DNA of 64,000 nucleotides from Escherichia coli (GTDB lineage Bacteria; Pseudomonadota; Gammaproteobacteria; Enterobacterales; Enterobacteriaceae). The notes below the pieces were generated by a model, which saw only the letters and a program-made list of their open reading frames with translations, was not told where the DNA came from and ran no database searches. This document shows positions 2,554-62,972 of this stretch, piece after piece; positions within the stretch are counted from its first letter, which is position 1; each line of letters starts with the position of its first letter. The stretch is taken from the NCBI RefSeq assembly GCF_029227855.1, contig NZ_CP074356.1; one strand, written 5' to 3'. The translations under genes and the position numbers were made by a program.

Positions 2554-4226
2554 TGGCTGCGCAAGGGTTCTTACTGATTGCCACGTTTTTACTGGTGTTA
2601 ATGGTGCTGGCACGTCCTTTAGGCAGCGGGCTGGCGCGGCTGATTAATGACATACCTCTTCCCGGTACAGCGGGTGTTGAACGCGTACTTTTTCGTTTAC
2701 CTGGCGTCTCTGACAGTGAGATGAACTGGAAGCAGTATCTCTGTGCCATTCTCGGCCTGAACATGCTGGGGCTGGCGGTGCTGTTTTTTATGTTGCTCGG
2801 TCAGCGCTATCTGCCGCTTAATCCACAGCAGTTGCCAGGGCTGTCATGGGATCTGGCGCTGAATACCGCCGTCAGCTTTGTCACCAATACCAACTGGCAA
2901 TCTTATAACGGTGAAACCACGTTGAGCTATTTCAGCCAGATGGCGGGCTTAACGGTGCAAAACTTTCTTTCTGCCGCCAGCGGGATTGCGGTGATTTTTG
3001 CCCTCATTCGTGCATTTACCCGCCAGAGCATGAGCACACTCGGGAATGCCTGGGTCGATCTGCTACGCATCACGTTATGGGTGCTAGTCCCTGTGGCGTT
3101 GTTGATCGCACTGTTTTTTATTCAACAAGGTGCACTGCAAAACTTTCTGCCCTATCAGGCGGTGAATACCGTTGAAGGAGCGAAACAGCTGTTACCAATG
3201 GGTCCGGTGGCTTCTCAGGACGCGATCAAGATGCTCGGCACTAACGGCGGTGGTTTCTTTAATGCCAACTCGTCGCATCCGTTTGAAAACCCAACCGCAC
3301 TGACCAACTTCGTGCAGATGCTGGCGATCTTCTTGATCCCAACAGCGCTGTGCTTTGCCTTTGGTGAAGTGGCGGGCGATCGCCGCCAGGGGCGCATGTT
3401 GCTGTGGGCGATGTCAGTGATTTTTGTCATCTGCGTAGGCGTGGTGATGTGGGCAGAAGTTCAGGGTAATCCTCATCTGCTGGCACTGGGCGCGGACAGC
3501 AGCATCAATATGGAAGGTAAAGAGAGCCGTTTCGGCGTGCTGGTCAGTAGCCTGTTTGCGGTCGTGACTACGGCGGCTTCCTGTGGCGCGGTGATTGCGA
3601 TGCATGATTCGTTTACCGCTCTCGGTGGCATGGTGCCGATGTGGCTGATGCAAATTGGTGAAGTGGTGTTCGGCGGTGTCGGTTCTGGTCTTTACGGCAT
3701 GATGCTGTTTGTCCTGCTGGCGGTGTTTATTGCCGGGCTGATGATTGGTCGTACACCGGAATATCTGGGTAAAAAAATCGACGTACGTGAGATGAAACTG
3801 ACTGCACTGGCGATTCTGGTTACTCCAACACTTGTGCTGATGGGCGCGGCGTTGGCGATGATGACCGACGCCGGACGTAGCGCCATGCTCAACCCTGGCC
3901 CGCATGGTTTTAGCGAAGTGCTGTACGCCGTGTCATCCGCCGCTAACAACAACGGAAGCGCCTTTGCCGGATTAAGCGCCAACTCTCCATTCTGGAACTG
4001 TTTACTGGCGTTCTGCATGTTTGTCGGTCGCTTCGGGGTGATTATCCCGGTGATGGCAATTGCCGGTTCGCTGGTGAGTAAAAAGAGCCAACCCGCCAGC
4101 TCCGGCACGCTGCCAACGCACGGCCCGCTGTTTGTTGGCCTGTTAATCGGCACCGTATTGCTGGTTGGCGCACTGACCTTTATCCCTGCCCTGGCGCTTG
4201 GTCCGGTGGCGGAATATCTCTCCTGA
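2553..4226 (+). CDS. kdpA: Potassium-transporting ATPase subunit A (557 aa)
   Basis: In-frame ATG at 2553 within ORF 2409..4226; [33 protein letters not shown]... matches KdpA; K-12 length 557 aa. Confidence 0.95.
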
Positions 4227-42006: not shown

Positions 42007-42050
42007 TCACTCGCCGGATGACATCACGCCATCCGGCACCACTCATTTCA

Positions 42051-60004: not shown

Positions 60005-60036
60005 CAAAAAAAACCCGCTGATTAAGCGGGTTTTGA
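60005..60036. terminator. Bidirectional terminator between convergent crcB and cspE
   Basis: aaaaaaaacccgct-gattaa-gcgggtttt. Confidence 0.75.
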
Positions 60037-60053
60037 ATTCTTGCTGACGTATC

Positions 60054-60263
60054 TTACAGAGCGATTACGTTTGCAGCAGAAGGGCCTTTGGCACCGTTAG
60101 TGATTTCGAACTCTACGCGCTGACCTTCAGCAAGAGTTTTAAAACCATTAGTCTGGATTGCAGAGAAGTGTACAAACACGTCTTTGCTGCCGTCTTCCGG
60201 AGTAATGAAACCGAATCCTTTGGACTCATTAAACCACTTAACGTTACCTTTAATCTTAGACAT
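60054..60263 (-). CDS. cspE: Cold-shock-domain protein CspE (69 aa)
   Basis: ORF 60054..60347; start at [37 protein letters not shown]... (RNP1/RNP2 motifs). Confidence 0.96.
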
Positions 60264-60437
60264 CAAAATTACCTTTACATGAAAAATAGACACAAATGCT
60301 GTGTCGGTTACCAGTACACCAATTGTGGTACGCTTTGTCCAGTGCAACTTTACTAAAAAGTGATAAAAGTCGCGTTATTTTTGATGTTAATTATTTTACC
60401 CATTGATTTTAAAGAGTTTACTAAAATTTCATTTGTC

Positions 60438-60998
60438 TCAAAACTGAAAGCGCATCCAGGCAAAGTACACATTGCCATTGTTATAGGTACCCGGAATGTA
60501 GGTCATCTGAAAAGTCACTGGACCATAACCCACAGAGGCCAATGGCAGTAGAACCGGGAGAGGGATGTAATTCCAGTTATCGCGTGCCGTTACGCCAGCG
60601 GTGAATCCCAGTCCTAAATGAAAATTTTCATCCGCCAGCGGTCGCCAGGTACTTTCCCATCCGTATCCGGCAATCGGTTCCCATTTGTTCCACGAGTCCT
60701 TAAATGCCATGGCATACAGGCCATGCCAGTTTCCTTTTTCATCCCAACGCGACTGACCAAAACCGCCACCCCACAGTCGCTCGTTATAGCGATCGGTTTT
60801 TTCTTTGTCGTAAGCGAAACGAGCATGCCAGGTGATGGCAGGAATATATAAATCATAATGTTCAGGCTGTTGCCAGGTTTGTGTAATATTTTCTCCAAAC
60901 GTTGTCATCCACTCATCTGCGTTAGCAAAAACTTTACCAACGCTGATTAACTGAATAAAAACAAAGGAAAAGATAGCGACATATTTACTCACGTTCAT
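60438..60998 (-). CDS. pagP: Lipid A palmitoyltransferase PagP (186 aa)
   Basis: ORF 60438..61022; start at [27 protein letters not shown]...; ends in C-terminal Phe. Confidence 0.94.
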
Positions 60999-61483
60999 TT
61001 GTGACCATAAAACATTTATCAAAAATCTACTACTAGCATAGCAAAGCTACAATTAACATAACCTTAATAGCCCCAACATAAAGAACAATCTGAATAGCTG
61101 CTCTATTTATTTCCGCTTGTTTAAGTTAAATATTTCCGCGCATCGATTAAAGATGATGTATCGTTTTCTGCGATGGGAATAGTCAAAAAAGAAAAACCAA
61201 GTATTTTTTGATGACAAAATGCAACCAAGGAAAAATTTCTTTATTTTTTAATTGGATACAAAAATCACCTTAACGAAGAATATAATATATATCGTCAACC
61301 CATGCTCATGGCAGATTATTTTCTGAGCACGCAACCGCAGCTAACACCATTGCTATTAACAAATTTGCATCAATCCGCCATCAATTTACACACATTATTA
61401 TGTGGTAATTGCCAAACGCTAAATATGCGTTTTGTTATCTATGTATAAAAACAGCAACTTCAATGTCTTAATGGCAGTTTTTC

Positions 61484-61497
61484 TTGATTTTAATCAG
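61484..61497. promoter_or_regulatory. Candidate FNR site upstream of dcuC
   Basis: ttgattttaatcag against FNR consensus TTGAT-N4-ATCAA (one mismatch), about 90 bp before the dcuC start; dcuC is anaerobically induced. Confidence 0.45.
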
Positions 61498-61586
61498 CAT
61501 TCACCGCCAATTTATTGGGCATATTTTTTCCTTAAGTTTTAGGAATTTTTTATTATTTACTTTGGGGCCTGGAGACAGGAAAAATT

Positions 61587-62972
61587 ATGCTGACATTCAT
61601 TGAACTCCTTATTGGGGTTGTGGTTATTGTGGGTGTGGCTCGCTACATCATTAAAGGGTATTCCGCCACTGGCGTGTTATTTGTCGGTGGCCTGTTATTG
61701 CTGATTATCAGTGCCATTATGGGGCACAAAGTGTTACCGTCCAGCCAGGCTTCAACAGGCTACAGCGCCACGGATATCGTTGAATACGTTAAAATATTGC
61801 TAATGAGCCGCGGCGGCGACCTCGGCATGATGATTATGATGCTGTGTGGCTTTGCCGCTTACATGACCCATATCGGCGCGAATGATATGGTGGTCAAGCT
61901 GGCGTCAAAACCATTGCAGTATATTAACTCCCCTTACCTGCTGATGATTGCCGCCTATTTTGTCGCCTGTCTGATGTCTCTGGCCGTCTCTTCCGCGACC
62001 GGTCTGGGTGTTTTGCTGATGGCAACCCTGTTTCCGGTGATGGTAAACGTTGGTATCAGCCGTGGTGCAGCTGCTGCTATTTGTGCCTCCCCGGCGGCGA
62101 TTATTCTCGCACCGACTTCAGGGGATGTGGTGCTGGCGGCGCAGGCTTCCGAAATGTCGCTGATTGACTTCGCCTTCAAAACGACGCTGCCTATCTCAAT
62201 TGCTGCAATTATCGGCATGGCGATCGCCCACTTCTTCTGGCAACGTTATCTGGATAAAAAAGAGCACATCTCTCATGAAATGTTAGATGTCAGTGAAATC
62301 ACCACCACTGCTCCTGCGTTTTATGCCATTTTGCCGTTCACGCCGATCATCGGAGTGCTGATTTTTGACGGCAAATGGGGTCCGCAATTACACATCATCA
62401 CTATTCTGGTGATTTGTATGCTGATTGCCTCCATTCTGGAGTTCATCCGCAGCTTTAATACCCAGAAAGTTTTCTCTGGTCTGGAAGTGGCTTATCGCGG
62501 GATGGCAGATGCGTTTGCTAACGTGGTGATGCTGCTGGTTGCCGCTGGGGTATTCGCTCAGGGGCTTAGCACCATCGGCTTTATTCAAAGTCTGATTTCT
62601 ATCGCCACCTCGTTTGGTTCGGCGAGTATCATCCTGATGCTGGTATTAGTGATCCTGACAATGCTGGCGGCAGTCACGACCGGTTCAGGCAATGCGCCGT
62701 TTTATGCGTTTGTTGAGATGATCCCGAAACTGGCGCACTCTTCCGGCATTAACCCGGCGTATTTGACTATCCCAATGCTGCAGGCGTCAAACCTCGGTCG
62801 TACCCTGTCACCCGTTTCTGGCGTAGTCGTTGCGGTTGCCGGGATGGCGAAAATCTCACCATTTGAAGTCGTAAAACGCACCTCGGTGCCGGTGCTTGTT
62901 GGTTTGGTGATTGTTATCGTTGCTACAGAGCTGATGGTGCCAGGAACGGCAGCCGCGGTCACAGGCAAGTAA
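61587..62972 (+). CDS. dcuC: Anaerobic C4-dicarboxylate transporter DcuC (461 aa)
   Basis: ORF track 461 aa MLTFIELLIGVVVIVGVARYIIKGYSATGVLFVGG... Confidence 0.95.
   Translation: MLTFIELLIGVVVIVGVARYIIKGYSATGVLFVGGLLLLIISAIMGHKVLPSSQASTGYSATDIVEYVKILLMSRGGDLGMMIMMLCGFAAYMTHIGANDMVVKLASKPLQYINSPYLLMIAAYFVACLMSLAVSSATGLGVLLMATLFPVMVNVGISRGAAAAICASPAAIILAPTSGDVVLAAQASEMSLIDFAFKTTLPISIAAIIGMAIAHFFWQRYLDKKEHISHEMLDVSEITTTAPAFYAILPFTPIIGVLIFDGKWGPQLHIITILVICMLIASILEFIRSFNTQKVFSGLEVAYRGMADAFANVVMLLVAAGVFAQGLSTIGFIQSLISIATSFGSASIILMLVLVILTMLAAVTTGSGNAPFYAFVEMIPKLAHSSGINPAYLTIPMLQASNLGRTLSPVSGVVVAVAGMAKISPFEVVKRTSVPVLVGLVIVIVATELMVPGTAAAVTGK

Follow-up and report, generated by a model that had tools for sequence, protein, structure and literature searches.

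The Divergent pagP-dcuC Control Region of Escherichia coli: Constrained Promoter Ends around a Variable AT-Rich Centre

Introduction

When two divergently transcribed genes are separated by several hundred base pairs of AT-rich DNA, how much of that DNA serves the control of its two neighbors, and what occupies the remainder? The spacer between pagP and dcuC of Escherichia coli raises this question. The stretch of 64 kb that we analyzed (hereafter, the window) had received an initial annotation made from its letters alone, in which this spacer was read as an AT-rich control region, probably bound by H-NS, that carried an FNR-like site for dcuC and a TGTTTA-containing segment perhaps related to the PhoP control of pagP, and that was long enough to hide small RNAs or micro-ORFs. 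The spacer is in fact the dcuC/pagP regulatory region of K-12, which has already been described in the literature, and these individual proposals can consequently be confronted both with published data and with the corresponding loci of other enterobacteria. Here, we compare the two ends of the spacer with its centre, and ask which sequences are the probable elements of the two promoters and whether anything else of consequence lies between them.

The Spacer and Its Surroundings

The open reading frames of the window, together with the annotation of K-12 and of strain 118UI, define a pagP-dcuC spacer of 588 bp, equal in length to that of K-12 (table 1). Its left edge is at 60999 and not at 61023, because pagP begins at the ATG at 60998, as it does in both K-12 and 118UI; position 61023 is merely the end of a TTG-extended form of the pagP ORF and is not an annotated start. 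The gene order, by both ORFs and RefSeq annotation (K-12 and 118UI), is cspE (-), pagP (-), dcuC (+), and dpiA (-). The GC content of the spacer is 32%, versus 51.7% for the 64-kb window, and the lowest-GC stretches of 588 bp in the entire window are all inside it. A query of 701 bp around the spacer matches 5,413 of 5,426 complete E. coli genomes, the best match (99.9%) being that of strain 118UI, and relative to K-12 the spacer of the window strain carries 30 differences in its 588 positions. We found no mobile elements or repeat families within the spacer, which is present in a single copy per genome. The ORFs, the genome matches, the K-12 and 118UI annotation, and the base composition (GC 0.32 vs. 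0.517) thus all bear out the reading of this DNA as an AT-rich divergent pagP/dcuC control region. The further assertion that it is the longest ORF-free stretch of the window is a matter of threshold. With ORFs of at least 50 aa, the segment 61023-61586 (564 bp) is indeed the longest gap, and the runner-up has 313 bp; with a cut-off of at least 80 aa the spacer loses this distinction to wider gaps at the tRNA cluster and in the kdp/ybfA region. In either case, the borders had to be corrected to 60999-61586.

Some additional features of the locus and its vicinity can be recorded here. About 38 of the 5,413 genomes do not have at least 80% coverage of the spacer region. In E. coli 23AR1101, an IS5-like element of the ISKpn26 family (2874-3978 of its sequence) replaces nearly the whole of the spacer, and its presence removes both native promoters, that of pagP and that of dcuC. 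Elsewhere in the window (~42010-42043), a block of approximately 8 kb that is present in 118UI (ybeQ-ybeR-djlB-ybeT-ybeU-djlC-hscC) is absent, and the ybeL and rihA flanks are joined directly where 118UI has this block. The Rfam cspA thermoregulator (RF01766) matches 60006-60364 (-), across cspE and its leader, with 119 bits versus a gathering score of 78. Finally, the two proteins encoded on either side of the spacer have diverged to different degrees: PagP is 87% identical to its counterpart in E. whittamii and about 80% identical to that of Citrobacter, and the corresponding values for DcuC are 98% and 93%. PagP is thus evolving much faster than its neighbor, and the four-fold diversity of pagP within E. 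coli is likewise higher (0.086 vs. 0.066).

Table 1. Features of the pagP-dcuC locus (window coordinates)
Feature	Position	Strand	Remarks
pagP, lipid A palmitoyltransferase	60438-60998	-	186-aa ORF, 97.8% identical to K-12 PagP; ATG at 60998
pagP-dcuC intergenic control region	60999-61586	.	588 bp, 32% GC; from ORFs, annotation, and composition
pagP -10 hexamer TATGCT	61035-61040	-	Aligns with mapped Salmonella -10 TATTAT; T1, A2, and T6 invariant in 9 species
Likely PhoP box, direct repeat TATTAAggttaTGTTAA	61053-61069	-	55-71 nt upstream of pagP ATG; possibly also an ArcA-type repeat
TGTTTA segment cttgtttaagttaaatatt	61117-61135	+	TGTTCA in 7/7 other E. coli; unalignable outside Escherichia; PhoP role not supported
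Hypervariable central spacer	61200-61349	.	pi 0.123 vs. 0.066 at four-fold degenerate sites
Nonconserved 48-codon ORF	61302-61448	+	Intact in 4/7 other E. coli; O157 start ACG; N17 and EC5931 frameshift
Moderately constrained block with repeat CATCAATccgcCATCAAT	61350-61449	.	pi 0.038; partly conserved in Escherichia and some Citrobacter
FNR binding site TTGATTTTAATCAG	61484-61497	+	9/10 consensus positions; centre 96.5 bp upstream of dcuC ATG
Inverted repeat, upstream arm	61519-61532	+	Complementary to dcuC ribosome-binding site and start codon
Predicted dcuC -10 hexamer CATATT	61520-61525	+	Begins 29.5 bp after FNR centre; A2, A4, and T6 invariant in 9 species
dcuC ribosome-binding site AGGA	61577-61580	+	6 nt before ATG; read from sequence; region nearly invariant in E. 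coli
Inverted repeat, downstream arm	61577-61590	+	Ribosome-binding site and ATG
dcuC, anaerobic C4-dicarboxylate carrier	61587-62972	+	461-aa ORF, 99.8% identical to K-12 DcuC

The dcuC Promoter

Both of the strings on which the initial annotation had based its regulatory proposals are present, ttgattttaatcag at 61484-61497 and cttgtttaagttaaatatt at 61117-61135, and their fates differ. The first of them, the FNR-like site, fits the inverted repeat TTGAT-N4-ATCAA at 9 of 10 positions. Scanning for motifs was of limited help in judging such sites: the window has four matches to the FNR consensus with at most one mismatch versus 2.5 expected, so that the bare motif is not significant; the suggested scan for PhoP likewise returned its string at a level not above chance, and that for CRP gave no match with at most two mismatches anywhere in the spacer. 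Since neither the FNR nor the PhoP motif by itself exceeds chance, the significance of the sites must rest on their position, their conservation, and published data.

For the FNR site, all three are available. Myers 2013 (PMC3688515, Table S6) lists CTGATTAAAATCAA at 655281 (U00096.2) among the FNR sites that are both predicted and bound, assigned to dcuC/pagP, reports an FNR ChIP-seq summit at 655298, and classes dcuC as directly FNR-activated. With the offset of 777 by which K-12 coordinates were converted, itself taken from the FNR motif, the bound site at 655281 maps exactly to window 61484-61497 and the ChIP-seq summit to 61480, approximately 10 bp away. In K-12, moreover, dcuC mRNA is about 20-fold higher under anaerobic conditions (aerobic/anaerobic ratio 0.05), and the gene is activated in the wild type relative to the fnr mutant (Myers 2013). 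The site was found in 44 of 45 dcuC-bearing loci from the Enterobacteriaceae (Escherichia, Citrobacter, Salmonella, Enterobacter, Raoultella, Kosakonia, and others), where its distance from the ATG is always 92.5-106.5 bp; nearly all of the 44 share the same imperfect last base. It is near-invariant in an alignment of nine species; among eight E. coli there is zero variation at 61450-61499, and E. coli shows hardly any variation over the whole dcuC-proximal 137 bp. The FNR-like site proposed for dcuC is therefore the published bound site of K-12, and the original call was right.

FNR binding and the activation of dcuC are published; the geometry of the promoter has to be deduced from the sequence. 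Downstream of the site is a conserved block, TTTATTnGGCAyATTTT, whose spacing to the site is fixed in the nine species and which contains the predicted -10 hexamer. The usual activating position of an FNR site is -41.5, that of a class II promoter, and the arrangement seen here would probably place the dcuC site at this position; transcription would then begin near 61532 and give a leader of about 55 nt. In published ChIP-seq data, the anaerobic sigma70 peak on the dcuC side maps to window ~61543, a location compatible with a start at either 61532 or 61549. The latter position deserves attention, as it is that of the only published dcuC 5' end (-38), for which a -10 of CTTAAGCT was suggested and which would place FNR at -58.5. 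We nonetheless consider it unlikely that dcuC, although FNR-activated, is transcribed from near 61549 or from elsewhere with FNR at about -58.5 or in a class I position: the 5' end in question is supported by just four 454 reads, presumably aerobic; -58.5 is not a usual activating position for an FNR site; and the sequence 61533-61545 is not conserved outside Escherichia, whereas the key positions of the CAyATT at 61520-61525 and its spacing to the FNR site are kept in nine species. The entry of Myers 2013 (PMC3688515) for the dcuC site reads "TSS not in peak region", and the supplements of Kim 2012 contain no start sites for pagP or dcuC. The class II arrangement, with its predicted start near 61532, is the one that we consider more probable.

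A Predicted Hairpin over the dcuC Start Region

The predicted dcuC promoter overlaps one arm of an inverted repeat of 14 nt, by which the -10/+1 region can pair with the ribosome-binding site and the ATG. An RNA extending from 61510 to 61600 folds at -20.3 kcal/mol (z = -2.75), and an RNA that begins at the predicted dcuC start is unstructured (z = +1.06). The same helix occurs in E. whittamii (z = -5.2) and in Escherichia sp. E1V33 (z = -4.3), where the arms carry three substitutions, each of which preserves or strengthens the pairing. The hairpin is not formed in Citrobacter, Salmonella, or Enterobacter and is thus limited to Escherichia; no consensus RNA structure of the dcuC leader was found across nine species.

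Such an arrangement might allow the choice of start site to gate translation. Transcripts that were started upstream would fold and hide the ribosome-binding site, and the FNR-dependent mRNA from about 61532 would stay open because it misses the upstream arm, with the result that DcuC would be made only from FNR-initiated mRNA. If this were true, the promoter/ribosome-binding-site pairing would amount to an Escherichia-specific translational safeguard against the spurious or constitutive transcription of the spacer. We regard this scheme as a long shot. The hairpin could just as well arise incidentally where a T-rich promoter region faces an A-rich ribosome-binding site.

The pagP Promoter and Its PhoP Box

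The PhoP box of E. coli pagP (crcA) was reportedly mapped by Minagawa in 2003. The control of pagP by PhoP is published: phosphorylated PhoP shifts a fragment with the Shigella pagP promoter, and pagP expression is lower in the Shigella phoPQ mutant. As for the other regulators considered here, the binding and expression data behind the pagP/dcuC model come from K-12 or Shigella. The exact location of the box in the window is a question of alignment and of published distances, and the most favorable candidate is the direct repeat TATTAAggttaTGTTAA, which is the best match to TGTTAA-N5-TGTTA in the whole 64-kb window. It agrees with the PhoP consensus at 9 of 12 positions; its upstream half-site, here TATTAA, is variable among E. 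coli, and both of its half-sites hold positions that are invariant in nine species. At the same distance from the pagP ATG, E. albertii has TGTTAAggttaTGTTTA, which matches the PhoP box at 11 of 12 positions.

From this repeat to the downstream -10 hexamer TATGCT there are 12 nt, and the published sigma70 peak on the pagP side maps to window 61036 (K-12). We infer from this sequence arrangement that pagP transcription begins near 61028, which would leave a 5' UTR of about 30 nt. A simple scan for sigma70 promoters across 60900-61700 yielded no sites versus 3.4 in shuffled sequences, a result that is uninformative for promoters that depend on an activator.

Comparison with the orthologous pagP promoter of Salmonella enterica (PhoP architecture IV; Zwir 2012) gives further weight to this assignment. 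The mapped Salmonella -10, TATTAT, aligns with TATGCT, and the two promoters share an invariant TGTTAA(G) half-site. The Salmonella PhoP box, CTGTTTATAGTTTGTTAAG (Zwir 2012), ends in this TGTTAAG half-site at 23 nt from the -10, a count that we confirmed in the S. arizonae locus. In Salmonella, then, TGTTAAG forms the downstream half of the box, at 23 nt from the -10, whereas in Escherichia it forms the upstream half, and the box is only 12 nt from the -10. This shift by one half-site in Escherichia explains why the published distance between PhoP box and start is 32 bp for E. coli crcA versus 44 bp for Salmonella pagP. On the basis of the alignment and of these distances, the PhoP box likely lies at 61053-61069.

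The TGTTTA segment, which the initial annotation had tentatively linked to PhoP control, fared poorly. As a PhoP box of the form (T/G)GTTTA-N5-(T/G)GTTTA, it has a single good hexamer with a poor partner. That it is nevertheless the PhoP element of pagP, or a second one, seems to us very improbable: a distal site is conceivable, given that a second, weak PhoP box is present in Salmonella pagP, about 126 bp upstream of the start, and TTATTTccgctTGTTTA (61107-61123) conforms to the PhoP pattern with three mismatches, but the window contains as many as 204 matches with up to three mismatches, the TGTTTA reads TGTTCA in all seven of the other E. coli, including the K-12 in which PhoP control was shown, the segment is on the strand opposite to pagP, and this nonconserved DNA could not be aligned with Citrobacter, Salmonella, or Enterobacter. 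The repeat at 61053-61069 accordingly remains our candidate for the PhoP box.

H-NS and Other Regulators

The suspicion that the spacer is bound by H-NS holds for K-12. Two H-NS ChIP-chip regions, 654590-655558 and 655584-656283 (Myers 2013, K-12), map respectively to window 61220-62188 and 60495-61194 and together span the spacer plus some 500-600 bp of each gene; the spacer was also flagged HNS in a SELEX study. Deletion of hns raises pagP expression 18-fold, and SlyA, which counteracts H-NS, is needed for the induction of pagP in biofilm. RcsB with GadE also induces pagP. The spacer is thus an H-NS-bound AT-rich region in K-12. Motifs resembling H-NS nucleation sites number eight in the spacer versus approximately 1.7 expected from their density in the window, an excess that mainly reflects AT content, and over the whole window there is no enrichment of these motifs (183 vs. 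178 expected).

The sites for the other regulators are less easily located. Chalabaev 2014 mentions three "SlyA-like" sites; the SlyA consensus TTAGCAAGCTAA has no match with at most three mismatches in the spacer, and its count in the window is below that of shuffled sequences. For the GAD box of RcsB-GadE, the spacer has three matches at 14 of 20 positions, a score equalled by 41% of composition-matched random sequences, and we did not retain them.

Oxygen supply affects the pagP side of the spacer as well. In K-12, pagP mRNA is about 3.4-fold higher anaerobically, and the occupancy of the pagP promoter by sigma70 increases from 37 to 366, approximately 10-fold. In an arcA mutant, pagP is down 2.8-fold and dcuC 4.1-fold; an upstream ArcA site was predicted, and the ChIP signal was absent (Park 2013). 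The spacer contains just one good ArcA-like direct repeat, and this is the repeat that we assign to PhoP, TATTAAggttaTGTTAA. Because of this coincidence, we suggest that two response regulators, PhoP and ArcA, may share one site at 61053-61069.

The Centre of the Spacer

The two ends of the spacer and its centre differ in their diversity. Among eight E. coli, nucleotide diversity (pi) is 0.037 at 60999-61099, 0.052 at 61100-61199, 0.123 at 61200-61349, 0.038 at 61350-61449, and 0.013 at 61450-61586, all of these spacer values being inflated because the eight strains were picked by their spread of identity in this same region. The four-fold degenerate sites of the flanking genes have a pi of 0.066, about half that of the centre. 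The population at large gives a similar picture. With the central 251 bp as the query, megablast finds just 1,366 of the 5,426 genomes, and 682 of these match at 80-90% identity; for a dcuC segment of 701 bp, identity reaches at least 95% in essentially all genomes, and the dcuC-proximal 111 bp are conserved to the same degree. These population counts are independent of the choice of strains, and they agree with the pi values: the ends of the spacer are constrained, and the centre is not. The excess diversity of 61200-61349 may be due to haplotypes and recombination, to a mutation bias, or to alignment error. Within the block that follows it, and upstream of the FNR site, there is a direct repeat with an 11-bp period, CATCAATccgcCATCAAT (61368-61385), which is kept in Escherichia and partly in C. 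braakii.

Could this variable DNA conceal an independent gene, either a small RNA or a small protein? The searches offer little encouragement: neither Rfam, nor the comparison of ORFs among E. coli, nor the published sigma70 peaks, which are confined to the two flanking promoters of pagP and dcuC, point to an sRNA or a conserved small ORF in the spacer. One protein candidate is an ORF of 48 codons (61302-61448), which has an ATG start, is open in both the window and K-12, and appears in older annotations, in E. coli only, as a "hypothetical protein"; it is broken in three of the seven other E. coli, and most of the K-12 differences within it alter the amino acid. In favor of a hidden gene, one might also invoke the promoter in the dcuC direction that Shimada 2014 predicted in the spacer, matched by eye to 61210-61238, and a weak terminator-like hairpin at 61414-61432; the predicted -10 reads AATTTC in the window, a substitution in the stem weakens the hairpin in six of the seven other E. 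coli, and the Rfam search of the spacer returned only noise (RT-8, E = 5.1). Considering also that the centre is about twice as variable as four-fold sites and that current RefSeq annotation has nothing in the spacer of eight genomes, a hidden gene of either sort is hardly to be expected, and the earlier speculation about sRNAs and micro-ORFs receives no support. In the RefSeq genomes 118UI and 2015C-3905, one number is missing from the series of locus tags between pagP and dcuC, probably because the 48-codon ORF was once annotated there as a "hypothetical protein" and later withdrawn.

Discussion

Taken together, these observations make it very probable that the 588 bp between pagP and dcuC are a shared, H-NS-coated regulatory spacer of two divergent genes, each of which has its own activator-dependent sigma70 promoter near its start codon. 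In the mechanism that we propose, FNR bound to TTGATTTTAATCAG (61484-61497) would, under anaerobiosis, activate a dcuC promoter with its -10 at CATATT (61520-61525) and its start at about 61532. On the other strand, PhoP bound to TATTAAggttaTGTTAA (61053-61069, -) would replace a -35 element, 12 nt upstream of TATGCT, and drive transcription of pagP from about 61028. H-NS spread over the entire AT-rich spacer would hold pagP expression low, and SlyA and RcsB/GadE would relieve this repression in biofilms. The approximately 300 bp between the two promoters would then be mostly unconstrained AT-rich filler that contains no conserved gene.

The value of this locus for discovery is small, for its main inputs (FNR, PhoP, H-NS/SlyA, RcsB/GadE, and the dependence on ArcA) are already in the K-12 literature. 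What has been gained are corrections: the PhoP element is relocated, the FNR call is right on grounds that go beyond the motif, and the centre is filler. Of interest to the specialist are the predicted class II architecture of the dcuC promoter and the Escherichia-specific pairing of promoter and ribosome-binding site.

The closest known relative of the dcuC end of the spacer is naturally the K-12 dcuC promoter itself (Zientz 1999; Myers 2013), which has the identical 14-bp FNR site at the same distance from the ATG and the same flanking genes; two bases (61504 and 61537) differ between the FNR site and the ATG, and nothing material distinguishes the two. The pagP end has a wider kinship, with the promoters that are silenced by H-NS and counter-silenced by SlyA or PhoP, such as pagC and ugtL of Salmonella and hlyE of E. 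coli. With these it has in common its AT-richness, its occupancy by H-NS, its derepression in hns mutants, and its requirement for SlyA. Unlike promoters of the pagC/ugtL/hlyE type, however, the spacer has no match to the SlyA consensus with at most three mismatches, and the two genes that it serves, pagP and dcuC, are not horizontally acquired but belong to the ancestral core of the genome.
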